NCBI GenBank assembly: GCA_964373665.1
Contig: CAYJVM010000001.1
Span: 93,325-157,324 of the forward strand
DNA from: an uncultured archaeon
GTDB taxonomy: Archaea > Aenigmatarchaeota > Aenigmatarchaeia > CG10238-14 > SCSR01
DNA length: 64,000 nt
Direction: 5' to 3'
Part shown: piece after piece, positions 5,955 through 64,000 of the stretch
How positions within the stretch are numbered: position 1 is the first letter of the stretch
How the letters are laid out: every line of letters begins with the position of its first letter
Notes under the pieces: model-generated
Told to the model about the DNA's origin: nothing
The model's input: only the letters and a program-made list of their open reading frames with translations
Database searches by the model: none
Translations under genes and position numbers: made by a program

Positions 5955-7502
5955 ATGAAGTGGAAATCCTTCAAGCACAACGGCGTCTACTTCCCTCCTG
6001 AATACCAGTGGAAAAAGCTGTCAGTCAAAATCAAAGCCGAGAAAGTGCAGCTGAATCAGGAGCAGGAGGAAATGCTCTATGCTTGGACGAAAAAAATCAA
6101 CACACCATACGTTCAAGACTCTGTTTTCCAGCAGAATTTTTTATCAGACCTAAAGAAAGTCCTTCCCAAGTTCCAGCATATCACAATGGATGACATTGAC
6201 CTCTCCGAAATTATCAAGTACCAGGAGAATGAAAAGAACCTGACTAGAGAAGAAAAGAAGATGCTGGCCGCAGAAAGAAAGAAGCAGAAAGAAGCGCTAA
6301 AGGAAAAATACGGCTATGTTGAGATAGACGGGAACAAGGCAGAAGCGGCAAACTGGATGGCAGAGCCTCCCGGAATTTTCATGGGTCGTGGCCAGCACCC
6401 GTTGAGAGGAAAATGGAAGAGAAGGATTATATCCGAGGATATAATATTAAATCTGAGCAAGGACGCGGCGGTTCCTGAAGGCAAGTGGAAAAAAGTCATC
6501 CATGGAAACGATTTCATGTGGATGGCATCGTGGCATGACGAGCTCACCGACAAGATGAAATATGTGTGGCCTAGCGAAGGCTCTGTTCTAAGGCAGAAGA
6601 GGGAGAAGGAAAAGTACGACAAGGCAATGTCCATCGACGACAACTTGGAGAAGATAAGAAAGCATATCCATGACGGTCTAAACTCAAAAGACGAAAAAAC
6701 AAGAAAAGTAGCTACAGTATGCTTCCTGATAGACAGGCTTGTAATGAGAGTGGGTGACGAAAAGGATGAGGACGAGGCTGACACTGTAGGAGCTTCGACG
6801 CTAAGGGTGGAGCATATAAAATTCAATCCCGATTCCATAGAATTCGATTTCCTTGGCAAGGACAGCGTCAGATGGGAGAAGAAACTGTTGTTCTCGGACG
6901 TTGACCCGACATTCGTGAAGAACATGAAAGAGTTTACCAACGGGAAAAAACCGGACAGCCTGATATTCGACGGCATAAGCTCGCGTGATGTCAACCAATT
7001 TTTCGGCAAGTGCATCAAAGGCCTGACGGCGAAAACATTCAGGACATACCACGCCACAAACACTCTGGTATCCTACCTGACATCTGTGAAAGTCAAATCT
7101 AGCGACACCGCGCAGCAGAAACTGTACCACGCAAAGATGGGCAACCTAGAGGTGGCGATAGCCTGCAATCACAAGAAGACGCCGCCGAAAACATGGGAGG
7201 AAACTTTCGCAAGGAAGCAGGAGAAACTAACAAAATGGATGAACACTAGTCCGAAGACAGAAAAGCAGGCGGAGAAGCTCAAGGAAAGGATAGAAAAATT
7301 GAAGATGGACATAGAGCTGTCGAAGAAAACTAAGGAATACAACCTGGGGACTTCGTTAAAGAACTATGTAGATCCGCGCGTTTACAAGTCATGGCTTGAC
7401 AAGATGGGGATAGACTGGACAAAACTATACACTTCAGCGTTGCAGAAAAAGTTTTCATGGGTCACCCGCTCAAAAGTCAAATGGGAAGACGTCGTGAGAT
7501 AG
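5955..7502 (+). CDS. DNA topoisomerase IB (eukaryote-type)
   Basis: FRTYHATNT and LGTSLKNYVDPRVY match the topoisomerase IB catalytic region (the active-site Tyr lies within LGTS.KNY.DPR). The lysine-rich N-terminal region is also typical. Confidence 0.85.
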   Translation: MKWKSFKHNGVYFPPEYQWKKLSVKIKAEKVQLNQEQEEMLYAWTKKINTPYVQDSVFQQNFLSDLKKVLPKFQHITMDDIDLSEIIKYQENEKNLTREEKKMLAAERKKQKEALKEKYGYVEIDGNKAEAANWMAEPPGIFMGRGQHPLRGKWKRRIISEDIILNLSKDAAVPEGKWKKVIHGNDFMWMASWHDELTDKMKYVWPSEGSVLRQKREKEKYDKAMSIDDNLEKIRKHIHDGLNSKDEKTRKVATVCFLIDRLVMRVGDEKDEDEADTVGASTLRVEHIKFNPDSIEFDFLGKDSVRWEKKLLFSDVDPTFVKNMKEFTNGKKPDSLIFDGISSRDVNQFFGKCIKGLTAKTFRTYHATNTLVSYLTSVKVKSSDTAQQKLYHAKMGNLEVAIACNHKKTPPKTWEETFARKQEKLTKWMNTSPKTEKQAEKLKERIEKLKMDIELSKKTKEYNLGTSLKNYVDPRVYKSWLDKMGIDWTKLYTSALQKKFSWVTRSKVKWEDVVR

Positions 7503-10532: not shown

Positions 10533-10652
10533 GGGCGAGTAGCTTAGCCTGGTTGGAGCACTCGAACTTAGGTGAAGCTGATAGCAATCAGGCAGACACC
10601 GAGAAAGAGTAAACTTCGGGAGCGGTCAAGAGTTCAAATCTCTTCTCGCCCA
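10533..10652 (+). tRNA. tRNA with ~45-nt intron (isotype unresolved)
   Basis: The acceptor stem is GGGCGAG/CTCGCCC, the D-arm is GCTT-AGCCTGGTTG-GAGC, and the T-arm is AAGAG-TTCAAAT-CTCTT. A long insertion interrupts the anticodon region. Confidence 0.6.
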
Positions 10653-10807: not shown

Positions 10808-11185
10808 TTGATTACAATGATAAAGTACTACAAGGCGCCTGACATAGAAATGACGGTAAGAGAAGTCTTTGCCAAGCTCGGCATGGACCATGACATCTCG
10901 CGGGTAGCATGCATACGGAGCAGGGGCTCGCAAAGCAGAAGGACGTTGGCAAGGTGCCATACTATTTCCAAGGCTGTCCAGACAGGGCTAGACATCAAGG
11001 CTCATTATGTCATTGAAGTGATTTCTGAGAATTTCGACAAGCTCAGCGACGAGGAGAAGGTGAAGACCATAATCCATGAGCTCATGCACATACCTAAGGC
11101 ATTTGGCGGCGGTTTCAAAGGACATGGTTATGTGAACAGGAGAACAGTCGATGGCATGTACAGTAAATTCAAGTCCCGCCTCTAA
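10808..11185 (+). CDS. putative HExxH zinc metallopeptidase
   Basis: It contains the motif HELMHIPKAFGGGFKGH. Confidence 0.4.
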   Translation: MITMIKYYKAPDIEMTVREVFAKLGMDHDISRVACIRSRGSQSRRTLARCHTISKAVQTGLDIKAHYVIEVISENFDKLSDEEKVKTIIHELMHIPKAFGGGFKGHGYVNRRTVDGMYSKFKSRL

Positions 11186-23248: not shown

Positions 23249-23334
23249 TGCAGGGGTCGGATAGCCTGGTCAATTCCGCCAGCTTGAGGTGCTGGTCTCT
23301 TAGTGAGTACGAGAGTTCGAATCTCTCCCTCTGC
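23249..23334 (+). tRNA. tRNA-Leu(GAG)
   Basis: The acceptor stem is GCAGGGG/CCTCTGC, the anticodon stem is CCAGC/GCTGG with loop TTGAGGT, the T-arm is GAGAG-TTCGAAT-CTCTC, and there is a 15-nt variable arm. No intron. Confidence 0.85.
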
Positions 23335-23366
23335 ACAGCTTTCTTAACAGTTAACCAAAGAATAAT

Positions 23367-23723
23367 ATGCTCAAAACGGAAGAATTAGTAGAAGCGCATG
23401 ATAAAATAATTGAAGAAAGTGGGGGTCATAGTGGAGTTTTGAATTTAGGAAATTTAGATTTTATAGTATCACAAATTAATACAACTAAAGACATTTATAC
23501 AAAAACTGCAAGAGCTTTGTACGGAATAATAAAAACGCATCCTTTTGTTGATGGTAATAAAAGAACAGCAATTGCTGTATCAGAATCCCTCTTACGAGAG
23601 AACGGTCTGAAGTATAAAGCAAGCGATGAAGATTTATGGGACATCGTGCACAATATTAATAAAGAAGAAATGACATTTGTTAAAGTGTTGAATTGGGTTA
23701 AAAGTAAGGCAGACAAAATATGA
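23367..23723 (+). CDS. Doc/Fic-family toxin (death-on-curing)
   Basis: It carries the Fic motif HPFVDGNKRTA. No Phd antitoxin lies upstream; the tRNA-Leu does. Confidence 0.8.
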   Translation: MLKTEELVEAHDKIIEESGGHSGVLNLGNLDFIVSQINTTKDIYTKTARALYGIIKTHPFVDGNKRTAIAVSESLLRENGLKYKASDEDLWDIVHNINKEEMTFVKVLNWVKSKADKI

Positions 23724-23818
23724 CAACATTAGATTATGTTAAGCAAACGTTGAAGGAAAGAAAGGAGTTGTTTAGAAAACTTGCTAATGAAGACAAATAC
23801 CTATTTAAGAAGGGCTAA
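23720..23818 (+). CDS. 32-aa ORF overlapping the doc stop codon (ATGA); possible cognate antitoxin or leader
   Basis: The overlap with doc suggests translational coupling. The peptide MTTLDYVKQTLKERKELFRKLANEDKYLFKKG is charged and helical. Confidence 0.25.
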   Translation: MTTLDYVKQTLKERKELFRKLANEDKYLFKKG

Positions 23819-23858
23819 TTTAGTTCGAATCTCTTCACCCGCTCCATGACATTCAAGC

Positions 23859-46108: not shown

Positions 46109-46456
46109 TTAAAATAACTTCAAAAGTTCTTCTTTGACTTTTCTAAAGGTAGCTTCGTTTATCTTACCCAAGTTTTTAATAGCGGACGTTTTCTTTAATG
46201 TGAATATTGCATTGGTTTTTATTCGACTAGGTTGAGGTAAGAAACCATATTCAAGGTCATTTTGATCTATTAGAACGGAATAATCTACATTACGAATGTT
46301 AGAAGTTAATCCGCAAGATATGAAATCTTCTAATTTTCGATTAATTCCGCTTTTTGATAATACAACTACTGGCCTTTTTTTACTTGCTTTCAAATCTGTA
46401 AACGGAAAAGATATAAGAATTATTTCTCCTTGTTCAAAGTTTATTCCAGATTTCAT
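46109..46456 (-). CDS. mazF: MazF/PemK-family endoribonuclease toxin
   Basis: GEIILISFPFTDLKASKKRPVVVLS is the PemK/MazF signature. Confidence 0.7.
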   Translation of the reverse strand: MKSGINFEQGEIILISFPFTDLKASKKRPVVVLSKSGINRKLEDFISCGLTSNIRNVDYSVLIDQNDLEYGFLPQPSRIKTNAIFTLKKTSAIKNLGKINEATFRKVKEELLKLF

Positions 46457-46700
46457 CTTCTTTGTTCTCCCATAAGTCTTTAGCTACTTTCTCAGCATGT
46501 TTAAGCATATAATCAAACTCTCGAGCAAATCTTTTAGATGCTTTAGCAGATTTTTCAATTAGTAACTTATCACCTTTCTTCACTATGAGTAATTCTTCAC
46601 CCTTTCTAATTTTCATTTCCCTTCTGATATCAGATGGGATGGCGATTTGTCCTTTTTGTGAAACTCGTATCGTTTTAAACTTCAATTCATCTTTCAACAT
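46434..46700 (-). CDS. mazE: AbrB/MazE (SpoVT-AbrB domain) antitoxin
   Basis: RVSQKGQIAIPSDIRREMKIRKGEEL is a swapped-hairpin AbrB motif. The gene overlaps the toxin gene. Confidence 0.6.
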   Translation of the reverse strand: MLKDELKFKTIRVSQKGQIAIPSDIRREMKIRKGEELLIVKKGDKLLIEKSAKASKRFAREFDYMLKHAEKVAKDLWENKEDEIWNKL

Positions 46701-49920: not shown

Positions 49921-51107
49921 AATCCAAAGTCCCACCATCTACTTGGCGACTTTTCCTCTTCGTCCCTCTTCTTCATCATGGCCGCGACTTTCTTTATGCC
50001 ACCTTCCGCCGCGTCTACTGACTTGCTGTTGTTGCCTATGCCGACTGTGTTTCCCACACCCACGACAATTATGATGCCCTTTTCTGCAGTGTCTGCAACA
50101 TTTTCCTCAACCATGCTCGCTACCTTGTTCGCGCTCTTGAGCACATCAACAGTCATCGGTGATATCGCCTCCTCTTGGCTCATCTTGACGACAAAAGTAT
50201 CCAATGGTATGTCCTTCTCTGTGGCTATGTTCTCAATATAGGCCCTGTCAACTCCCAAGCCGCCTATGGCAACACCCACCCCTTCGGCGATGCTCCCGGT
50301 CTTCTCACCCTCCAGCTTTGCAGCTGCGTCAACTGTTATTATCTTCGCCACCTTTTGCTTCTTGGTAAGATTTTCAACAGCCTTCCCAAGTCTTCCCAAT
50401 CTGCTGCCCGGGCCTTTCGCCTTGACGAAAATCACATTCTTTCTTTTGATCTTCTTCCTCATGACGACCGTGTCTTCTTCTATCACCCTTGTCTTGGAGT
50501 TTCCAACCATTCGTGCCACAACCAGGCCTCCGATAGAATCCCCAACCGGCCAGCCGTTGGCAAACGCCTCAGTGCCCCTCATCAAAGCTTTTGATATCCT
50601 TTCTATAAGCGGCAGCTGCATCTGCAGTATAAGGCCAAGCTGCCAGCTCTTGGTCTTCTTGATCAATTCTATAAAGTGCTTGACCACTTTTGATATCTGG
50701 TTCAATGACATCGCGCCTGCCAATGTCATCATCGTATTGGCCTGGCTTTCAGCATCCATATTTGGGGCGACCCTCTTCACAAAGTGCTTGAATCTCCTCT
50801 CGGACTGGATTTCTATGTGCTCCACTTTTTTCACTAGCCCATACGGGTCAATGCTCACAGGCTGGATGGAGAAAAATTCCATAAAGTTGCTAACCTTCTC
50901 ACTGACATCCTTGGACGGTTTTTTGGAAACCTTCTTGACTGCTATACCCTTCGCCTTTTTGGTGAATCCTTCAAGCATCGTCAATGTATGGTCAAGTTTC
51001 CAGAGCATCTGGGTCACCATCAGGCGCGGATAAAGGAACATCATCGCGAAAAACATGACTATCCATATTATGTTCGCTATCGATCCCAGATCATCGAAGA
51101 GAGCCAT
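49917..51107 (-). CDS. membrane-anchored protein, DUF1512-like
   Basis: An N-terminal transmembrane helix and a ~380-aa soluble domain with a Gly-rich C-terminal region (GVGVAIGGLGV) of the kind seen in archaeal DUF1512 proteins. Confidence 0.4.
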   Translation of the reverse strand: MALFDDLGSIANIIWIVMFFAMMFLYPRLMVTQMLWKLDHTLTMLEGFTKKAKGIAVKKVSKKPSKDVSEKVSNFMEFFSIQPVSIDPYGLVKKVEHIEIQSERRFKHFVKRVAPNMDAESQANTMMTLAGAMSLNQISKVVKHFIELIKKTKSWQLGLILQMQLPLIERISKALMRGTEAFANGWPVGDSIGGLVVARMVGNSKTRVIEEDTVVMRKKIKRKNVIFVKAKGPGSRLGRLGKAVENLTKKQKVAKIITVDAAAKLEGEKTGSIAEGVGVAIGGLGVDRAYIENIATEKDIPLDTFVVKMSQEEAISPMTVDVLKSANKVASMVEENVADTAEKGIIIVVGVGNTVGIGNNSKSVDAAEGGIKKVAAMMKKRDEEEKSPSRWWDFGF

Positions 51108-51343
51108 TTAATCACTGTTTTTAATCTACCGAATACTAACTTTAGATTCCCTATTTAAATTAGTTGCAGTTTATAGCTTTGAATAAATAAGTGCCACTTT
51201 TCAACATGGTTAATTTAAGGAAAAGGTTTATCTATAGCCTTTCCCAAATATTTTTAAATGTCTTTAGGAACCATTCACCCTAAGTTATCTAAAACTTATT
51301 TAAGTTTAGCAGTTCTTACTAACTATCCCTCAAGGTAGTTAAA

Positions 51344-51643
51344 ATGCGAACTCGGATTAATTTCAATATAAAACATGGTGTAAGAATAAATCTACCTATT
51401 ATTATAATTAAAGAGGACAATTGGTTTGTAGCTCTGGTTCCAACATTGGGTGTTGCGGCACAAGGTAAAACTTTAGATGAAGTTAAAGAAAACATGTCCG
51501 ATTTGCTTGGAATGTATTTTACAAACCCGCATACACCAAAACCAAAAATCAAAACTCTGGTCAATGCCAATATAATATTCTCAACAATTTCTGTCAATGT
51601 GCCAAAAGGTGTTGAAAATACCCAAAGCAATACCGCTGTCTAG
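51344..51643 (+). CDS. hicB: HicB-family antitoxin
   Basis: DNWFVALVPTLGVAAQGKTLDEVKENMSDLL matches the HicB/UPF0150 pattern. Confidence 0.55.
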   Translation: MRTRINFNIKHGVRINLPIIIIKEDNWFVALVPTLGVAAQGKTLDEVKENMSDLLGMYFTNPHTPKPKIKTLVNANIIFSTISVNVPKGVENTQSNTAV

Positions 51644-51839
51644 ACGCAAAGTTGTTCAAATATTACATGGTAATGGATTTGTACTTTCACGGGAAGGTGG
51701 AAGACATACTGAATTTGAGAAGTTGGATGATAAAGGCAAATGGTGGGTAACATATGTCCCTAGACATGCTGAAATCTCTGTAGGTGTTATTCAAGAAATT
51801 ATAAAACAGGCTGGAAAGGAGCGGAGCGAGTTTTGGTAA
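51597..51839 (+). CDS. hicA: HicA-family mRNA interferase toxin
   Basis: KVVQILHGNGFVLSREGGRHTEFEK...VPRHAEISVGVIQEIIKQAG matches the HicA/YcfA fold. The true start is probably internal. Confidence 0.6.
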   Translation: MCQKVLKIPKAIPLSRRKVVQILHGNGFVLSREGGRHTEFEKLDDKGKWWVTYVPRHAEISVGVIQEIIKQAGKERSEFW

Positions 51840-52345
51840 AGAATAAGGCAACCTATTCTTTCGTGTCTACATTATAGTCTTCTTTGTTCATGACACCTTG
51901 AGATTAATCACGATGTTGTTATGTTCTGGCGAAAGATTATCAATTCAGAGATTTGCACAATGCAGAAGTTTTATAAAATATTGTTATTAAAGATGAAGGT
52001 AATACCATAGTTCGTGGCACCAAAATTTGCACAGATTTTGAGCAATGTACACCATCTATAAAAATTCTACTTAAATTCGATTTTTGAGGCTAATAGACTT
52101 GATTTTTAGAGGGTGTTAATGGGCATATCAAATCACTTAAATATAGCATGCACAAAAAATACCTTACTTTTTGTCACATACGAAGTATTCAGAAACAGGC
52201 TCTGTTGGACTGTTAGATGCTATAAAAGTGAAAATTGGTATTTTTGATTGGTCCCTTATTCTGGGGTATTACCAAGATGAATATTTCATATGTTCAACTA
52301 GCACCACTCTTCATACTTAAATAGCTTACTGACTAGTAATTACTA

Positions 52346-53859: not shown

Positions 53860-54261
53860 ATGACAAACCCAGTTGTGGAAAGTTATACTATACCACATAC
53901 AAGAAATTTTCAGATAATGAATTTAGACACGGCAGGGAGAATAGCTTTACCCTACGGTAGAAGCATTCCTTATTCAAACTTGGATTTTGAACTTGGAAGA
54001 GCGCACCTTGAAGTTGACGTAGCTGGAACTCGAGAAACACACGATTTTGACTATTTGGTTTTGTACACTAACTATGAAGGACGTGTAAAGGTGGATAATC
54101 AGAGCCGAATTTTAATACCAAGAGGTGTTAGAGATCTTCTTAAATTGAGCGATAAGGTTGCTTTAGTTGTTGGCGGCGATGGTGTTCTTGAAATTTGGGA
54201 TTACAATAATTGGAAACAATATAAAGACTTGTATTCAAAGTATAAACGAAAAGGCGAGTAG
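53860..54261 (+). CDS. MraZ-like duplicated SpoVT/AbrB-fold protein
   Basis: Two D-x-x-G/S-R-I-x-(L/I)-P repeats are present ([13 protein letters not shown] and [12 protein letters not shown]). Confidence 0.45.
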
Positions 54262-54269
54262 TAAAGTCT

Positions 54270-54455
54270 ATGACTAAAGGAACGCCCTCCATGGGCAAAA
54301 GAGTTGGATTAAAGCATACAAGATGCAGACGATGCGGCAGGACATCCTTCCATATTCAGAAAGGAGAATGCTCTGCATGCGGATTTGGTAAGAGCCCTAA
54401 AATAAAGACTTATTCTTGGAAGACTCATGACATCAGAAGAATGAGAAAATTATAA
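54270..54455 (+). CDS. rpl37e: 50S ribosomal protein L37e
   Basis: [11 protein letters not shown]...[24 protein letters not shown] is the L37e zinc-ribbon signature. Confidence 0.85.
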
Positions 54456-54509
54456 AATGCTAATACAAGCCACGAACTTAATAATTCTTTCAAATCAATT
54501 ACATTTAGG

Positions 54510-54635
54510 GGGCCCGTAGCTCAGCATGGTAGAGCAGCTGATGCCAAGTTGAAGCTTTTAACCATGTGTGAAAAAGCATTGATTCCCAGATGAAAGGAAA
54601 CCAGTTGGTCGAGGGTTCAAATCCCTCCGGGCCCA
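54510..54635 (+). tRNA. tRNA-Gly(GCC) with ~50-nt intron (Trp not fully excluded)
   Basis: The acceptor stem is GGGCCCG/CGGGCCC, the D-arm is GCTC-AGCATGGTA-GAGC, the anticodon loop is ATGCCAA with U33, the T-arm is GAGGG-TTCAAAT-CCCTC, and the discriminator is A. Confidence 0.65.
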
Positions 54636-54807
54636 TAAAGACTCGTACTTAGTTGTATGCGAGTCTTCTTTATCGCCTTCTCGGCCTCATGCGTCTAAGT
54701 CACTTTTAATGCATCGGTAATGTAGTGAGGTTAGTGAAGCATAAGGAATGTGCATGGGTCTTGCCGTCCATGTAGCGTTTATATGAAGCATCTACTAATT
54801 ACTTTCT

Positions 54808-55176
54808 GTGTTCTCAACAGGTCTCCTCCGTCGTGTGACGGTTAAAAGGCTGGAGCTAGGGAAATCGAAGGAAGAGTTACGTATCGCATTACACATCTAC
54901 GAATGGCAAATCGCTTATCTCCAAAATCTTAATTCGTCAGAGATACGGCAGATGGTGTCTACAAGAAAGAGGATACGATATCTGTCTAGGTCTCTACCAC
55001 ATCAAGTAGGGAAGGCGACAGAATCGCTGGTCAATGATTTGGACGTTAATCTTATCAGCCGACTGAGAAATGAGAAACTTAATGGCCGTGTCAAGAAGAT
55101 ATTGGGTAATAACAGTTATCTTAAACTGGCCAGAATGATTAACAGTGGCAAAGCAAAGTCAAGTAAAGTAAACTAA
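54808..55176 (+). CDS. hypothetical protein (inside putative integrated segment)
   Basis: ORF only. Confidence 0.3.
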   Translation: MFSTGLLRRVTVKRLELGKSKEELRIALHIYEWQIAYLQNLNSSEIRQMVSTRKRIRYLSRSLPHQVGKATESLVNDLDVNLISRLRNEKLNGRVKKILGNNSYLKLARMINSGKAKSSKVN

Positions 55177-55182
55177 TCGCCC

Positions 55183-55461
55183 TTATCTTCTTTGTCTATT
55201 CTGTTCTTCAAGACATGAGCCGTGGGCGTAGCCGGAGTACCAACCGTACTTGCGGGTGTATATCTTGACGGCGTCAAACATCCTGTTGCCTTTTCCACAG
55301 AATGTACATACACGATCTTCGAATCTTGTTGAAAATGATGCTGTCCCTTTCCTCGAACCTCCTTTACCCATTTGACTGATGAGCCATATACCGCCGCCGA
55401 CGATCGCAACCCCTATGATGAAGTAGACTGTTCCCATGTGCCCTCCGCGAACCTCCACCAT
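55183..55461 (-). CDS. small membrane protein with a C-x-x-C...H/C zinc-ribbon-like tail
   Basis: An N-terminal transmembrane helix and the motif CTFCGKG...HGSC. Confidence 0.3.
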   Translation of the reverse strand: MVEVRGGHMGTVYFIIGVAIVGGGIWLISQMGKGGSRKGTASFSTRFEDRVCTFCGKGNRMFDAVKIYTRKYGWYSGYAHGSCLEEQNRQRR

Positions 55462-55684
55462 CTCTGGGGATGATACGCAAGGCGAGACACGCAGTCAAGA
55501 CCACAGGCTCAAGTTTTTTCATGATCAATCATGATAGAAGAGATAAGTGGCAAGCTGAGTACATTGACCCATGCGACTGCGATTCAGGGTGGGTGAGCCT
55601 TCGGGCAATCAGACCTGAAGGCGAAATCTCGGCCGATGCCAGCCGAAGCGGCGAGCACGAGACCTGAACCGCTTAGCGTGCCGG

Positions 55685-55700
55685 TCCCTCCGGGCCCATA
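55685..55700 (+). repeat. direct repeat identical to the 3' end of tRNA-Gly (tccctccgggcccata)
   Basis: A 16/16 match to positions 54622-54637. It is preceded by gtgccgg. Confidence 0.7.
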
Positions 55701-55776
55701 CCTAAATGGGTAAATCCCAGTTCATTCTGCCGTCAACTTTATATGTTCCAAAGACCCACTAATTAGTGGGTATAGT

Positions 55777-56031
55777 ATGCCTGTAGTGAAGTTAGACGAA
55801 AAGGGAAGGATACAGCTCCCGAAAACATTCAGAAAGGAACTGCATCTAAGACCGCGCCAACCTCTTGTTGTCAAAAAGCAAGGGGAACTTCTCACCGTGA
55901 GCAAAGTGACCAAAGTCAGTCCTAATGAGGATCCTCTGCTCAGGGACATTATTCTGAATCCTCTCAAGAGCAAGAAAAAGGTCACCAAAGAACTTCTCGA
56001 AGAATTGAAAGACGAAATGTGGTCCGAGTGA
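55777..56031 (+). CDS. vapB: VapB-type antitoxin (SpoVT/AbrB domain)
   Basis: VKLDEKGRIQLPKTFRKELHL is a swapped-hairpin motif. Confidence 0.6.
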   Translation: MPVVKLDEKGRIQLPKTFRKELHLRPRQPLVVKKQGELLTVSKVTKVSPNEDPLLRDIILNPLKSKKKVTKELLEELKDEMWSE

Positions 56032-56423
56032 TCCTAGTCGATTCGAATATCTGGATTTTTGCTGAAGTCAAAGGCGGCGACGAGCATTATCTGGCAGTTG
56101 AAAAGTTGCGGCACCAACTTGGGCGGGGTGTTGTAACCAACGTAATAGTATGTTCGGATGTATTTCATTTGCTTAGCAGGATGTTCGGCTCTGCCGTCGC
56201 GAGGGCTAGACTGGATACGATACTTAATCATCCGGCTGTCGAATGGCACGAGTTCACCCGGACGCAGATGCTAGAAGCCGTGAGATTGTCTCATGCGAAG
56301 CTGTTGCGCATCAATGACGCACTGATTGCTCAACAAGCCAGTGAATTGAACGTTCCAATCCTCACCGACAACGTGAAGGATTTCAGGAAAGTCAAGGGCA
56401 TTGAAATTATCCCGTTAAGATAA
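56019..56423 (+). CDS. vapC: VapC PIN-domain toxin
   Basis: ILVDSNIWIF, ...ND and ...TDN are the PIN acidic residues. Confidence 0.75.
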   Translation: MVRVILVDSNIWIFAEVKGGDEHYLAVEKLRHQLGRGVVTNVIVCSDVFHLLSRMFGSAVARARLDTILNHPAVEWHEFTRTQMLEAVRLSHAKLLRINDALIAQQASELNVPILTDNVKDFRKVKGIEIIPLR

Positions 56424-56476
56424 TTGCCCACGTTTAAGAGGGATAGCCACATGGACCTGAACCATTTGAGCCTTGG

Positions 56477-56489
56477 TCCCTCCGGGCCA
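56477..56489 (+). repeat. second direct repeat of the tRNA-Gly 3' end (tccctccgggcca)
   Basis: A 12-nt exact match to the tRNA 3' strand. The upstream context gacctgaacc...ggtccct parallels repeat 1. Confidence 0.6.
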
Positions 56490-56497
56490 TCCTAAAA

Positions 56498-57118
56498 TTA
56501 CTTCCTCAAAACTCCAAACGCTTGATTTGTTCCCATTTTTTGGAAGAAGCCTAATACTATGTTAAGCATACCAAGATGCTCTACTAAATACGCGCGATTC
56601 AGCGGACCGACATCAATCGGTTCATATCCTAGATCACTAGCCAGTTGTGAAACCTTCTCTTTGGCTGTTTGGTCATCGCTACAGATGAAAACGTTCGCTT
56701 TTCCTTCTTTAAAACTGAGTGACGATTCAAGAACTTGGGCGAAAAGTGTATTAAAGGCTTTGACTATTTTCGCATCTGGAACAATCTTTGCAATCTCTTC
56801 TGATGCAGATGTTGTAACATCCAAACCACTGAAATCCTGTTTAAGCGGATTTGAAATATCGACCAGCACTTTTCCTTTCAAATTTCCTGCAGTCTTTAGA
56901 ACATCATTCATTGCACTCCACGGCACTGCCAATATCAAAACATCGCCAAACTCAACGGCCTCCTTTATAGAACCTCCCATGAACTTTCCTACAGACGCAG
57001 ACAAATTTCTTGCCTTCTCAGGTTCCCTGGAACCGATAAAGACTTCATGTGATGTCTTCGCCAAGCTCTTTGCGAAAGCGGTTCCCATATGACCGGTTCC
57101 TATTATTCCTATCCTCAT
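56498..57118 (-). CDS. NADP oxidoreductase, coenzyme-F420-dependent family (Fno/Npd-like)
   Basis: A Rossmann N-terminus (MRIGIIGTGHMGTAFA) with a P5CR-like fold. Confidence 0.55.
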   Translation of the reverse strand: MRIGIIGTGHMGTAFAKSLAKTSHEVFIGSREPEKARNLSASVGKFMGGSIKEAVEFGDVLILAVPWSAMNDVLKTAGNLKGKVLVDISNPLKQDFSGLDVTTSASEEIAKIVPDAKIVKAFNTLFAQVLESSLSFKEGKANVFICSDDQTAKEKVSQLASDLGYEPIDVGPLNRAYLVEHLGMLNIVLGFFQKMGTNQAFGVLRK

Positions 57119-60548: not shown

Positions 60549-60633
60549 GGGCCCATAGCTCAGCATGGTAGAGCAGCTCGCTCTTAATTTTGGGGTTACG
60601 AGACGGTCAAGGGTTCGAATCCCTTTGGGCCCA
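60549..60633 (+). tRNA. tRNA-Lys(CTT) with ~11-nt intron
   Basis: The acceptor stem is GGGCCCA/TGGGCCC, the D-arm is GCTC-AGCATGGTA-GAGC, the anticodon loop is CTCTTAA, and the T-arm is AAGGG-TTCGAAT-CCCTT. Confidence 0.7.
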
Positions 60634-60752
60634 CTGCCGTTTGGGTTTGAAACCCCTTTAAGGACACTGAATCCGTACTTCGATGGGTCCGGAGACGGAC
60701 CGGCGTCGACAGGGCCAGCATTGGACTCTTCGGTTTCAGCGGAGGGTCTGCC

Positions 60753-61217
60753 GTGTCGGTGCTGGTAGCGGGTACACGTCCAAGCTGGGTGAAGTCTCTG
60801 GTCGTATACACGCTGCCATGCGACCTCTCCGGCTACCTGTGGTATTTCGAAAGGTTCGCTCCTCGCTCGCTGGATCGTTTCTATACGGACGGGAAGGCTT
60901 GGCTCCCTGGTTTGGGGGACTATCTGAAGAGGTCGTTTCTAGACGACCTCTTCAACCACAATATCAAGCGAGAGATTGCGCGCCTAAGGATACCGATGCT
61001 GCTGATTCAGCCAGACAACGATGACGAGGTGCCAAAATGGTGCAGCGACCAAGCGTATGAGCTAAAACCAGAACCGAAGAACTATTTTCTCATCAAAGGG
61101 ACTCATACTATGCATTTGCGTGACGCCTCAGGTGGGCCAACTGGTTGGAACTTTGAACAGGAGGAAGAAGTGACCGGAAAGACGTTGGAGTGGTTCAAGA
61201 CAACGCTCTCAACGTGA
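60753..61217 (+). pseudogene. C-terminal fragment of an alpha/beta-hydrolase (dienelactone-hydrolase/peptidase-like)
   Basis: IPMLLIQPDNDDEVP and KGTHTMHL resemble the catalytic Asp and His blocks. No N-terminal nucleophile-elbow region is present. Confidence 0.4.
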
Positions 61218-61706
61218 GAGATAGACCGACCGTTGAAACTCGAGGACGTCAGACAAACATAGTGAGAATGGGCCGAGGATGGTGTCTACCTCCGTTTCAC
61301 CCAAGGCCATTCTATAGCCGCGCGAGTCATCGATCACGTGTATCCACTCGATGTACGGTACGTAACGAGGCAGGGCTGATCCTACAGCCTGGTACCCGGC
61401 CAATTGGCCACGGATGGTTAGGAGTTTGAGCGGGTTGGACAAGGTGAACTGGATGGCACTCTTAAATTCCCCGGGACGGCCGCCGAGCCGTGTCTGGTCA
61501 CGATATCCCTTTAGGTGGCCGAACAGGAAGTCCTCTCCGGGGAGAAGCGGGTGGGTTGATCCAAGCTGAATTTGGCGTCGATAACCCTCCTCGCTCATAA
61601 CATGCGTGGTTAGCAGCACCGGCTCGCCGTACTTAAACGGGTGCTTCATGAACATGTCGTCCACTGGGGAATAAAACGTCTGTAACAACCCTTCCATAAT
61701 AATCAA
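61209..61706 (-). CDS. hypothetical protein in GC-rich insert
   Basis: An ORF with ~58% GC. Confidence 0.3.
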   Translation of the reverse strand: MIIMEGLLQTFYSPVDDMFMKHPFKYGEPVLLTTHVMSEEGYRRQIQLGSTHPLLPGEDFLFGHLKGYRDQTRLGGRPGEFKSAIQFTLSNPLKLLTIRGQLAGYQAVGSALPRYVPYIEWIHVIDDSRGYRMALGETEVDTILGPFSLCLSDVLEFQRSVYLSR

Positions 61707-61724
61707 ATTATATTGTGCACTTGA

Positions 61725-62045
61725 CTATAAATACATTCCCTCGATAGGAATTACCTCGGTCGCGGGCGGAACGGAGCAATAGCTAACTGCCAAGACATCG
61801 CCAGCGGGCGTTCCGGCGACGAGAGATCGGACTAGATCGACCCGCTCTCCAAACGACCCATTGCCAGAGCAGCGTTCAGGTTCAGCCCCCTCCGTGCAGC
61901 TACCCAGACCACCGATGACGATGACCTTGCGGTCTTGCGCAGGGGCCTGAGTAAGACGTGCTTCCGAAACAAGGGGGAGGTGGAATGAGGATGCTGCCAA
62001 GAATGCTATGAAAAAAAGGGCCGCTCGAACACCGCGCTTCTCCAT
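61725..62045 (-). CDS. signal-peptide-bearing fragment, possibly the 5' part of a disrupted gene
   Basis: A signal peptide and a Cys-rich segment. It is on the same strand as the downstream ORF and in a different frame. Confidence 0.25.
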   Translation of the reverse strand: MEKRGVRAALFFIAFLAASSFHLPLVSEARLTQAPAQDRKVIVIGGLGSCTEGAEPERCSGNGSFGERVDLVRSLVAGTPAGDVLAVSYCSVPPATEVIPIEGMYL

Positions 62046-62090
62046 AGCCTTCCTCCCTGGTGAAATGATGAGATTCCGGGGCTCGATGTA

Positions 62091-62705
62091 CTATAAACCG
62101 AGGGTGAGTATGAAAAAGACCACGTGCGTGGGAAAAATGGGTACCAAGAGTGACAGAAGTGCGACAAGAGTAGCTTGTGGAGCACTTAGGCGGTCCATGA
62201 TAGCAAAACCGCGGTAGCTCAGGCGGAAGGACCACACGAGAGACCCTAGCTGAGCAAGTAACAGAGTCCCCTGAACAATCTCTATGGAAAGTGGACCGCT
62301 AACGGTATTCTCGGACAATGAGAACATGAGAACCGTTATGAAGACCCAATGAAAGACGACGAAGGGGGCTAGGCCGAAAATGACCGCTTGTGCTGTATTT
62401 GCAACCTCAAGTCTGCCCATTGCAAACTTCACGACAAAAGCGACGAGCGTTGCAGTAGCGTAGAGGAACAGTCCGCTGCCCAGCGGGATTAGGGGTACGG
62501 GGGCCCAAGTCTCGTGATGTGCCAAGAACGAGGGACCCGCAATGAGCGTGAACAGTAGAGAGGTTGCGAGCAGCATGCCTGCCAAGTAGATAAATGCGGA
62601 CCTAGTCGATCGGCGCTGTTCAGAGCCTGGGAAAAACCGGGAAAACGCAGCTAAGAGGCGGCCGATATAAGGAGTTTGTTTGGAGGCTAAGGAGGTGGTG
62701 GACAT
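62091..62705 (-). CDS. polytopic membrane protein
   Basis: Five to six transmembrane helices; GC-rich. Confidence 0.35.
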   Translation of the reverse strand: MSTTSLASKQTPYIGRLLAAFSRFFPGSEQRRSTRSAFIYLAGMLLATSLLFTLIAGPSFLAHHETWAPVPLIPLGSGLFLYATATLVAFVVKFAMGRLEVANTAQAVIFGLAPFVVFHWVFITVLMFSLSENTVSGPLSIEIVQGTLLLAQLGSLVWSFRLSYRGFAIMDRLSAPQATLVALLSLLVPIFPTHVVFFILTLGL

Positions 62706-63789
62706 AATACAAGTAGGGTTTCGACAAGCTTAAAGATAAGGGTAGGTTAGCACTATCGGACGTTTGCTGCGGATGTCACCGTGACCAGGAAGGCTCTTCG
62801 TCCTTCGCTTGGTTGATCGTGAGGTTCTGAAGGTTGGCCGCAGCAGCCTGAGCCACACCCCACACTTGATTGCGAATTCCTCTGCGGGGCAAGCGTCCGG
62901 CTCAGACAGGATCAGGCGGCGGGCGAACGGATAGCGATGCAGCCGCTGGCGAGAAAGGGTATTCAGGTGGTAGGCGGCGGGTAAGCACGCATGGTTAAGT
63001 TTCGGGGCTTCTTATAGGGGATAAACGTCGACTAGCCGTCTAGGCCAAGCGAATAGACCAACCCTCGCCTACTGGGGAAACGAATCGCCTGTCTTTGCTC
63101 ACTGAGGCAGCAAGGCAGGCGATCCTCTTCGTGGTTGTGAGAATGCCGCGAGCAATGTTTCGGGCCTGCCGACGAGTGACCGGGTGCCCTATTCGACAAT
63201 TGTAAGCCAGAATCAGGCCAGCCAACTGGTCACTTAGATGTTGATGACAAGTCATAAAAGTACTATGGCTTCCATGATATATATACTTTTCAGGGCCTGT
63301 ACAACGCTCCTGCCTGACTGCAGGATACTTCAATGGTGATCCGTCCAGGCGCAAGAAGAATTGCCCGCTATGGAGGACAGCCCCACTCCTGTCGCGTTCC
63401 CGCTCATCGGTTGAGATTGGCGACCGATAGTGCTTGCCTGGAAGGAAGAAACGTGGGATTCATGGTTCTCGTTCCTTTGCGGTCTCGGGGCGCCGTCGAG
63501 TACGTAGGCCGACAAGAGATGCCGCTGGGAATCAGGCGCTGCCGCGGGTGGGCTGGCTGGCTCTCTATGCCCACTGGGACTTCTGCCGATTATCGACCAA
63601 GAAAGCACTCACCATCTCTGGCTGGCGGCCTCTCGGTTACTTGGTCATCGTCTTCGCGGAGGTCGGACCCATCATAGTCCGATCGGATCGGATGTCAACC
63701 CATCTTCGGTGGGTCGACTGGCCCTTCTCCACGCCGAAGCGGGTCAGATGTGGCGCCGAGCGCGAGATTCAAACCTGTTCCTGTGCCGG

Positions 63790-63803
63790 TCCCTTTGGGC
63801 CCA
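63790..63803 (+). repeat. direct repeat identical to the 3' end of tRNA-Lys (tccctttgggccca)
   Basis: A 14/14 match to 60620-60633. It is preceded by gtgccgg and marks the return to AT-rich sequence. Confidence 0.7.
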
Positions 63804-64000
63804 TCGACCTGGATAATCAAATATCTTTATACAATCTAAATTACTATACATGAGAATTCCTATAAGCATTTTATTTATAATATCCTTTTTGATAATACCC
63901 GTGGCACATGCTGAAGTTGATAGCATACCTTTAACATTCGTTTCCGAAAACTCCAATGGCACACTCTTCAACCTTGGTGAATTAAAAAATTATGAAGTTG

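Follow-up and report, generated by a model that had tools for sequence, protein, structure and literature searches.

The 64-kb stretch of archaeal DNA analysed here (contig CAYJVM010000001.1, positions 93,325 to 157,324, from an uncultured archaeon of the Aenigmatarchaeota; hereafter the window) raises the question of how copies of a tRNA gene's 3' end came to lie downstream of that gene, with other genes enclosed between them. The tRNA gene is intron-containing and lies on the plus strand (54510-54635; Rfam RF00005, 51.8 bits); the copies delimit two compact segments, islets A and B, and a third such segment, islet C, follows a second tRNA gene 6 kb downstream. We consider it likely that the islets are scars of serial site-specific integration into tRNA 3' ends, followed by decay, the tRNA gene at 54510 having served as the integration target (attB, now attL, in the nomenclature of attachment, or att, sites).

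The window contains exactly three copies of the 12-mer TCCCTCCGGGCC from the end of this tRNA gene, starting at 54622, 55685 and 56477 and always on the plus strand; 0.13 copies would be expected by chance, and none of 100 shuffled sequences reached three. The exact recurrence of the tRNA end at the two downstream positions, on which the original prediction was built, is thus far beyond chance. Copies 1 and 2 (54622-54637 and 55685-55700, plus strand) are identical across 16 nt, TCCCTCCGGGCCCATA, which had been described as the last 16 nt of the tRNA; the repeat stands, but it is made up of the 14 nt of the tRNA 3' end and then TA, 2 nt of 3' flank past the discriminator base. Copy 3 (56477-56490, plus strand) matches exactly over 12 nt and has then lost one C. 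Copy 2 would represent the attR of islet A fused to the attL of islet B, and copy 3 the oldest attR. The likeness between copies 2 and 3 continues to their left: GG directly precedes both cores, GACCTGAACC is found 24 and 23 nt upstream, and of the four occurrences of the 8-mer GACCTGAA in the window, three are no more than 75 nt left of one of these copies. A search of 54400-56700 against Rfam detected no family, even with E values up to 1 admitted, and shuffled sequences fold as well as the sites do (z-scores -0.07 and -0.7), so that the suspicion that the repeats belong to a conserved structured RNA, raised at the outset as a possible objection, found no support. No further eroded core is present between 56490 and the LUD gene, and the F420-oxidoreductase and p165 genes therefore cannot be shown to be an older insert.

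Islet A (body 54638-55684, plus strand, between core copies 1 and 2) holds two small open reading frames (ORFs): orf122 (54808-55176, plus strand; gene callers take a 74-amino-acid version from 54952) and orf92 (55183-55461, minus strand), the latter with a transmembrane helix and a Cys/His motif. Neither has a Pfam, PHROG or NCBIfam match, and both are ORFans, matching only themselves among 5.8 billion clusters and 1.84 billion representatives; a homologue search with orf92 and a representative search with orf122 returned the query alone. None of the six frames of islet A holds an integrase remnant. The right end of the islet (55462-55684, plus strand) is non-coding, with a GC content of 0.56 as compared to 0.43 for the window; the first insert had been called relatively GC-rich, which is true of this end but not of the remainder. 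It finishes in a right-end arm (55648-55684, plus strand), which we take to derive from the P arm of an attP site, with a second copy of GACCTGAA at 55612. At the opposite end, directly 3' of the tRNA (54637-54668), the 8-bp inverted repeat AAGACTCG...CGAGTCTT is followed by a T-rich run and could be a terminator or a protein-binding site.

Islet B (55701-56476, plus strand) comprises a TATA-like box (55738-55745), a putative operator palindrome of 18 nt, ACCCACTAATTAGTGGGT (55754-55771), vapB (55777-56031, plus strand), vapC (56019-56423, plus strand) and a right-end arm (56444-56476, plus strand). The vapC product carries a PIN domain (1.2e-11; 45.7 bits against a Pfam cut-off of 23.6), the AbrB/MazE-like VapB matches AbrB, MazE and MraZ, in all cases below cut-off, and the two genes overlap by 13 nt. 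The gene content originally read from the sequence, two small ORFs in the first segment and a VapB/VapC pair in the second, is therefore as described. With a PIN toxin, an overlapping antitoxin gene of AbrB/MazE fold in front of it and an upstream operator, the pair is predicted to be a type II VapBC module, and the position of the palindrome, between the TATA-like box and vapB, makes the operon look self-contained and intact. The closest VapC homologues, 55-61% identical, are encoded between atpB and atpD, after rpL44e-rpS27e, and among insertion sequence elements. These vapBC relatives come without the flanks of islet B; DNA homology to other vapBC cassettes is limited to the promoter, vapB and vapC (55730-56426), and in one homologous cassette (locus L130) the 18-nt palindrome recurs. 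Homology so confined, in unrelated contexts, indicates that vapBC is cargo and not recombination machinery. The GC content of islet B, 0.465, compares with about 0.43-0.44 outside, and the statement that AT-rich host sequence resumes immediately after the second repeat is accordingly weak.

The homologous cassette just mentioned (L130:1-2273; 61% VapC identity) is found together with a 104-amino-acid ORF inside the ATP synthase operon of another archaeon, between atpB and atpD, and the segment with that ORF lies between the two members of a near-repeat, 16 nt long, of the start region of atpD (1055-1070 and 1859-1874). A similarity of the left flank of islet B to sequence downstream of tRNA genes in Geoglobus and at other loci was followed up and set aside as likely chance. 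Further toxin-antitoxin modules occur nearby, PemK/MazE and HicA-like (46109-46700 and 51344-51839), the HicA-like gene within an AT-rich stretch, about 51050-52250, with a GC content of 0.31-0.37. A protein of MraZ/AbrB fold (53860-54261) adjoins the tRNA gene at 54510; a homologue search with it returned only the query, and a protein scan of the genome contigs was empty.

Every tRNA gene in the window was checked for repeats of its own sequence. At 60549-60633 (plus strand; Rfam 56.5 bits) lies a tRNA gene with a short intron, whose anticodon loop, CTCTTAA, identifies it as Lys(CUU). The 14 nt of its 3' end, TCCCTTTGGGCCCA (60620-60633, plus strand), recur exactly at 63790-63803 (plus strand), giving two copies in the window where 0.02 would be expected. 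The second copy, a putative attR, closes islet C (60634-63789, plus strand), a GC-rich segment of 3.16 kb with ORFs of 154, 165, 106 and 204 amino acids and about 1.1 kb without a called gene. Apart from a weak match to Yip1, these ORFs have no counterpart in Pfam, PHROG or NCBIfam, they have no relatives in viral contigs, and the six frames of 62600-63860 contain no integrase. The GC content of islet C is 0.55 (0.50-0.59), as against 0.43 for the window, and drops sharply at 63803; together with the value of 0.56 at the right end of islet A and the ORFan cargo, this gives the islets a foreign composition, islet B being only slightly above the host in GC content. Direct repeats of a tRNA 3' end, as expected of integrative elements in tRNA genes, are thus present at both loci, with cores of 16, 12 and 14 nt (54622/55685/56477 and 60620/63790).

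The two loci are connected by the sequence in front of the closing cores. Left of 63790 it reads GCGCCGAGCGCGAGATTCAAACCTGTTCCTGTGCCGG and then TCCCTTTGGGCCCAT, left of copy 2 it reads GCGGCGAGCACGAGACCTGAACCGCTTAGCGTGCCGG and then TCCCTCCGGGCCCAT, and the two align without gaps (39 of 52 positions for arm plus core, E = 7e-5). Outside the core, the arms of islets A and C (the latter at 63753-63789, plus strand) are identical at 26 of 37 positions in fixed register, with a binomial P of about 1.3e-8; among all other 37-mers of the window, none matches the arm at more than 20 of 37 positions. The right end of islet B aligns to the arm of islet A over 47 nt at 81% identity, and what had been noted as a similar context of ~45 nt around the copies can now be stated as homologous right-end arms of A and B. 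The core differs between the loci by CC/TT, which is the same difference as that between their two target tRNAs, and the interiors and left ends of the three islets have nothing significant in common. Three unrelated cargos, one arm and a core that tracks the tRNA are what would be expected if related elements had carried an attP mimicking the tRNA 3' end; neither duplication nor chance nor a host RNA motif accounts for the pattern. T-arm-like sequences lie just inside the left ends of islet C (GGGTTTGAAACCCCTT, 60642-60660; 13 of 16 positions matching the tRNA T-arm, p about 0.03) and islet B (GGGTAAATCCC, 55709-55722; p about 0.05). They may be older att remnants or chance and, being marginal, were not used as evidence.

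The islets are absent from relatives. At least 119 archaeal genomes of many phyla carry the 29-nt 3' half of the tRNA at 54510 without change, in Met, Trp, Ile, Arg or Lys tRNAs, and at none of the 119 loci with this tRNA 3' half was a second core found within ~8 kb. Three of these loci (L088, L022 and L072) belong to relatives whose flanking proteins are 60-84% identical to those of the window. In L088 and L022 the order of L37e, the tRNA and LUD-PadR-M10 peptidase is kept, and between the tRNA and LUD there is only a 98-amino-acid ORF or an MsrB gene, with no islet genes and no second core. In L072 the order p165-LUD-PadR-M10-DUF5654-tRNA-Lys(CUU) is kept and unrelated genes follow, without islet C. 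The sequence downstream of both tRNAs varies in every genome seen. The comparison with an "empty" locus that the original prediction had proposed has therefore gone half way: genes and repeats are missing from the relatives, but a base-exact empty site was not found. Such a site is predicted to have the tRNA end directly before ...TCCTAAAATTACTTCC (window 56490 onward) or, at tRNA-Lys(CUU), before ...TCGACCTGGATAATC.

Contigs identical to the window were recovered from three Logan samples and in one contig of 173 kb from a metagenome-assembled genome at NCBI. In several samples the ends of Logan contigs fall within tRNA genes (23251-23279 and 54606-54635) with overlaps of k-1, a systematic graph effect of segments common to different organisms, which can mimic insertion polymorphism. 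The breaks at the tRNA 3' end were considered as a polymorphism in the population and this was rejected: the break node (54606-54635) is a 30-mer common to many archaea and matches no junction expected from core-core recombination, and the breaks reflect the assembly graph instead.

The search for a recombinase was negative at every level. No integrase or fragment of one was found in the ORFs or six-frame translations of islets A, B and C (PF00589 and related families, E up to 1), which thus contain no detectable integrase of the tyrosine-recombinase type. Neither the Pfam tables covering 10.5-23.3 kb and 43.9-64 kb nor the remaining window ORFs of at least 180 amino acids, a handful of which lack any Pfam match, include an integrase, in agreement with the earlier remark that none remains. 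The arms served as further probes. A profile of the three arms gave no further copies with nhmmer, and its weak matches on other tRNAs (E 0.1-10) were driven by the core. Combined patterns of arm and core had no match in IMG/VR; their sole match in JGI metagenomes lies in a high-GC bacterial sigma-factor gene and was dismissed as chance. No DNA match was obtained for islet C in plasmids or for islets A plus B in phages. The suggestion that mobile elements carrying the motif might be found in databases has thus led to no parent element.

The reading as serial site-specific integration, already proposed from the sequence, gains support from the repeat statistics, the third islet, the absence in relatives and the nature of vapBC as cargo. 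The mechanism that we infer begins with a circular element whose attP would consist of an arm of ~37-50 nt and then a short core mimicking the tRNA 3' end (GGTCCCTYYGGGCCCAT). An integrase, probably of the tyrosine type and acting on the 3' strand of the acceptor and T-stem of the tRNA, would recombine attP with the identical tRNA core; integration would restore the tRNA (attL) and place arm and core at the far end (attR). At 54510 the vapBC element (B) would have entered first, and element A next into the intact tRNA core, pushing B outward and giving the order tRNA-A-core-B-core. This order is suggested by the expectation that new elements enter the intact tRNA core and by copy 3 being more eroded than copy 2. 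A related element (C) would have used the sister gene, tRNA-Lys(CUU). The integrase and most of the other genes would then have been lost through internal deletions. Selection would keep the tRNA end, and addiction or selection would keep vapBC, as well as the doc gene at tRNA-Leu described below; the attR copies would persist as not yet eroded. The islets would be immobile unless an integrase were supplied in trans.

Several results weigh against this account. No integrase, integrase fragment or excisionase occurs in any islet or frame or among the window ORFs of at least 180 amino acids, and searches of IMG/VR, JGI metagenomes, plasmids, phages and the 135 loci collected yielded neither an intact parent nor a further instance of the arm. 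Homology between the islets does not extend to the left ends of A, B and C. The same arrangement is present in all contigs of the three samples, with no sign of ongoing excision, and the relatives, at 60-84% amino acid identity, are too distant for a base-exact empty site. All three islets that share the arm lack an integrase and islet B is little more than the vapBC operon and an arm; never having had an integrase would account equally well for the missing gene and for the trimmed form of B.

This last point leads to a different account, in which the islets are non-autonomous and lacked an integrase from the start, each being a cassette made of cargo and a single site of ~50 nt; a recombinase whose gene lies in another part of the genome, or on a helper element, would insert them in trans at tRNA 3' ends, as in integron-like or satellite-like gene capture. 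We regard it as rather unlikely. The lack of an integrase in all three arm-sharing islets speaks for it, as do their sizes (0.79, 1.06 and 3.17 kb, two of them under the 2.6 kb of the smallest reported thaumarchaeal cryptic integrated element), the conservation of the right-end site alone, and the packing of islet B, which is as tight as that of an integron cassette (operon at 55730-56426, then arm and core). The toxin-antitoxin cargo of islet B also agrees with it, such cargo being typical of chromosomal integron cassettes. However, selection on the tRNA and toxin-antitoxin genes explains the same features, ascertainment explains why only islets with both cores are seen, there is no recombinase candidate in the 64 kb, no further copy of the site in the collections searched, no integron attC-like symmetry or fold (z-scores -0.07 and -0.7) and no polymorphism between samples; in addition, loss of the integrase by decay is a documented route to such elements (PMC5704250). 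The more specific proposal of an archaeal gene-capture system, in which three integrase-less cassettes, each with one site of ~50 nt (GCGNCGAGCNCGAGA...GTGCCGG plus a tRNA-Lys-like core), were serially inserted by a trans-acting recombinase, is likewise unlikely; if true, it would amount to a functional analogue of the integron, with the 3' ends of two tRNA-Lys isoacceptor genes as its primary site.

The remaining explanations fare worse. An SSV-type ("suicidal") integrase that contains attP and is split on integration would make the arm a leftover of integrase coding sequence. Integrases that split on integration are common in archaea (PMC7253208), one thaumarchaeal element with such an integrase has been reported, and a 139-amino-acid ORF of islet C (63434-63853) runs through arm and core. 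Yet the 13 positions at which the A and C arms differ form clusters (16-19, 24-25 and 28-30) without a 3-nt periodicity and the corresponding frames in islet A carry stops, which indicates that the arm is not coding and makes a partitioned integrase very unlikely; moreover, reading on from the tRNA cores meets stops within about 10 codons, and no frame gives a Pfam integrase signal at E up to 1. An assembly artefact, in which unrelated sequence was joined at a tRNA whose 3' half many archaea share, is brought to mind by that 29-nt half being identical in at least 119 archaeal genomes and by two Logan samples in which contigs break at the tRNA, one ending at 54635 and the next starting at 54606/54607 (k-1 overlap). 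It is highly improbable all the same: the genes on either side of the tRNA are syntenic with L088 and L022, a 57-kb contig of the third sample and the 173-kb NCBI contig read through, and mis-joining cannot have produced core copies 2 and 3 or the copy at 63790, all of which are internal to contigs and shorter than k. As for chance matches, duplication by local slippage, or a regulatory motif or structured RNA that has nothing to do with integration, the shortness of the repeats (12-16 nt) might suggest them, but three copies against 0.13 expected, the P of about 1.3e-8 for the arm homology, the match of each core to its own tRNA, the lack of any Rfam match at E up to 1 and folds no better than those of shuffles leave them barely credible. 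Tandem duplication is ruled out by the lack of mutual similarity between the intervening segments.

The identity of the target tRNA at 54510-54635 was also examined. The gene was missed by ARAGORN in its default mode, and Rfam places a 61-nt insertion within its anticodon arm. It had been named tRNA-Gly, which is doubtful: a Gly(GCC) reading requires an anticodon stem without any nucleotide 26, and, in the light of the syntenic tRNAs of two relatives, the gene is better read as Lys(UUU) with two introns, namely ATGCCAAGTTGAA and a second one of ~39 nt. In these syntenic tRNAs (L022 and L088) the anticodon arm reads GCTGG-CTTTTAG/T; in comparison, the window tRNA has an extra 13 nt, ATGCCAAGTTGAA, right before G-CTTTTAA, after which comes a homologous long intron, and removal of both inserts yields a perfect tRNA-Lys(UUU) cloverleaf. 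ARAGORN is undecided on the isotype, accepting Lys, Gly and Trp spliced forms and proposing Phe in intron mode. On the strength of the alignment to the syntenic tRNAs, we favour Lys(UUU) with two introns as more likely than Gly, although this cannot be proven.

The number and position of introns differ between the orthologous tRNAs (window 54536-54612; L022:4620-4775; L088:4875-5034). The window tRNA has its 13-nt insert in the anticodon stem, that of L022 has 20 nt after position 7, and that of L088 has an insert in the D-loop; both L022 and L088 carry an additional insert ahead of the variable region. Judged from the alignment, this looks like intron gain, loss or sliding inside one lineage. 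Only 54 nt separate L37e from the tRNA in the window, where the relatives have an IspH/LytB-like gene (L088:3909-4841; L022:4842-5768). Another intron-containing tRNA, at 10533-10652, was missed by ARAGORN and by the whole-window Rfam search at gathering threshold and came to light only in a focused Rfam run; downstream of it lies a gene that encodes a PhageMetallopep domain (about 10817-11185), and no repeat of its 3' end was found.

A fourth islet, of a different family (23250-23834, plus strand), was noted at tRNA-Leu(GAG) (23250-23336, plus strand; ARAGORN). It includes a gene for a Doc (death-on-curing) toxin (23367-23723; TIGR01550, 63.5 bits against a cut-off of 38.65; Pfam Fic, 2.6e-11) and a 32-amino-acid ORF downstream of it, which may or may not encode its antitoxin, the usual order being antitoxin first. 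A 13-nt copy of the T-arm region of the tRNA (23822-23834; original at 23314-23326), for which 0.09 would be expected by chance, bounds the islet. Repeat-bounded islets thus occur at three of the six tRNA genes of the window, and toxin genes in two of the four islets. Also encoded in the window are a DNA topoisomerase IB of eukaryotic type (5955-7502; Pfam 2.4e-67), the archaeal ribosomal protein L37e and an ATP synthase operon of the A type. The topoisomerase is a hallmark of the Thaumarchaeota (Nitrososphaerota) and was taken as a sign that the archaeon is Thaumarchaeota-like. AtpA, AtpB and the topoisomerase are each alone in their 90% cluster; the lineage is barely sampled.

The locus offers a compact example of archaeal chromosomes acquiring and keeping foreign genes at tRNA loci. 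The presence of toxin genes in two of the four islets is in keeping with the view that addiction modules outlast the rest of an integrated element as it decays. Since islets without an integrase are invisible to surveys anchored on integrases, past integrations may be undercounted, and with the arm motif there is a concrete probe by which the parent element, along with its integrase, could be sought. Current understanding is unchanged by these findings, and a specialist would not be surprised by them.

Among known systems, integron cassettes share with the islets the arrangement of compact units by a primary site, each terminated by a recombination site whose ends are conserved and whose centre varies, and toxin-antitoxin cargo with its own promoter. 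Unlike integrons, however, the islets have no IntI, no R''/R' consensus and no foldable imperfect palindrome, and their primary site is a tRNA 3' end; the sites measure about 38-50 nt, and GACCTGAACC and GGTCCCT depart from RYYYAAC and GTTRRRY. "Gene capture" by partitioned SSV-type integrases was reportedly described by She et al. in 2001 for Crenarchaeota and Thermococcales. There too, direct repeats of the tRNA 3' part enclose foreign genes that have become fixed beside a tRNA gene, and the elements then decay. The SSV-type sites are 29-69 bp long and come with int(N)/int(C) fragments (PMC7253208), whereas the cores here are 14-16 nt, with no fragments detectable and no int(N) or int(C) abutting the att copies.

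A likeness in site and cargo is seen with the integrated elements of Thaumarchaeota, which have a median att of 17 bp and of which 57% lie in tRNA genes, intron-containing ones included, nearly all at 3' ends; arrays that arise from re-use of an integration site are known among them (PMC6563490). The 16-nt and 14-nt cores described here are within this range, which supports the integration reading, and the islets share with these elements the site at the 3'-distal part of a tRNA gene, the very short att, the ORFan-rich cargo, sometimes with VapBC, and the tandem re-use of a site. They differ in size and in gene content: the thaumarchaeal "cryptic integrated elements" of Krupovic et al. (2019) are defined by an integrase and span 2.6-98 kb (PMC6563490), whereas the islets measure 0.8-3.2 kb and have no integrase. 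Loss of the integration and transfer genes with retention of attL and attR is the mark of cis-mobilizable elements (CIMEs), which form tandem arrays at tRNA 3' ends in bacteria (PMC5704250). Their tandem accretion in Firmicutes is credited to Pavlovic (2004) and Bellanger (2011) in that review (PMC5704250). In the islets, both cores are likewise present and no recombinase was found, in exact agreement with the definition of CIMEs, and the Firmicutes CIMEs also form a tandem array at a tRNA 3' end, there too of tRNA-Lys. The Firmicutes elements are bacterial, derive from conjugative elements and have been demonstrated to be mobilised by a resident integrative and conjugative element, whereas the islets are archaeal and no helper for them was found in the collections searched. 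Taken together, these comparisons support the placement of the islets within a known kind, as decayed, CIME-like integrative elements accreted at archaeal tRNA genes.

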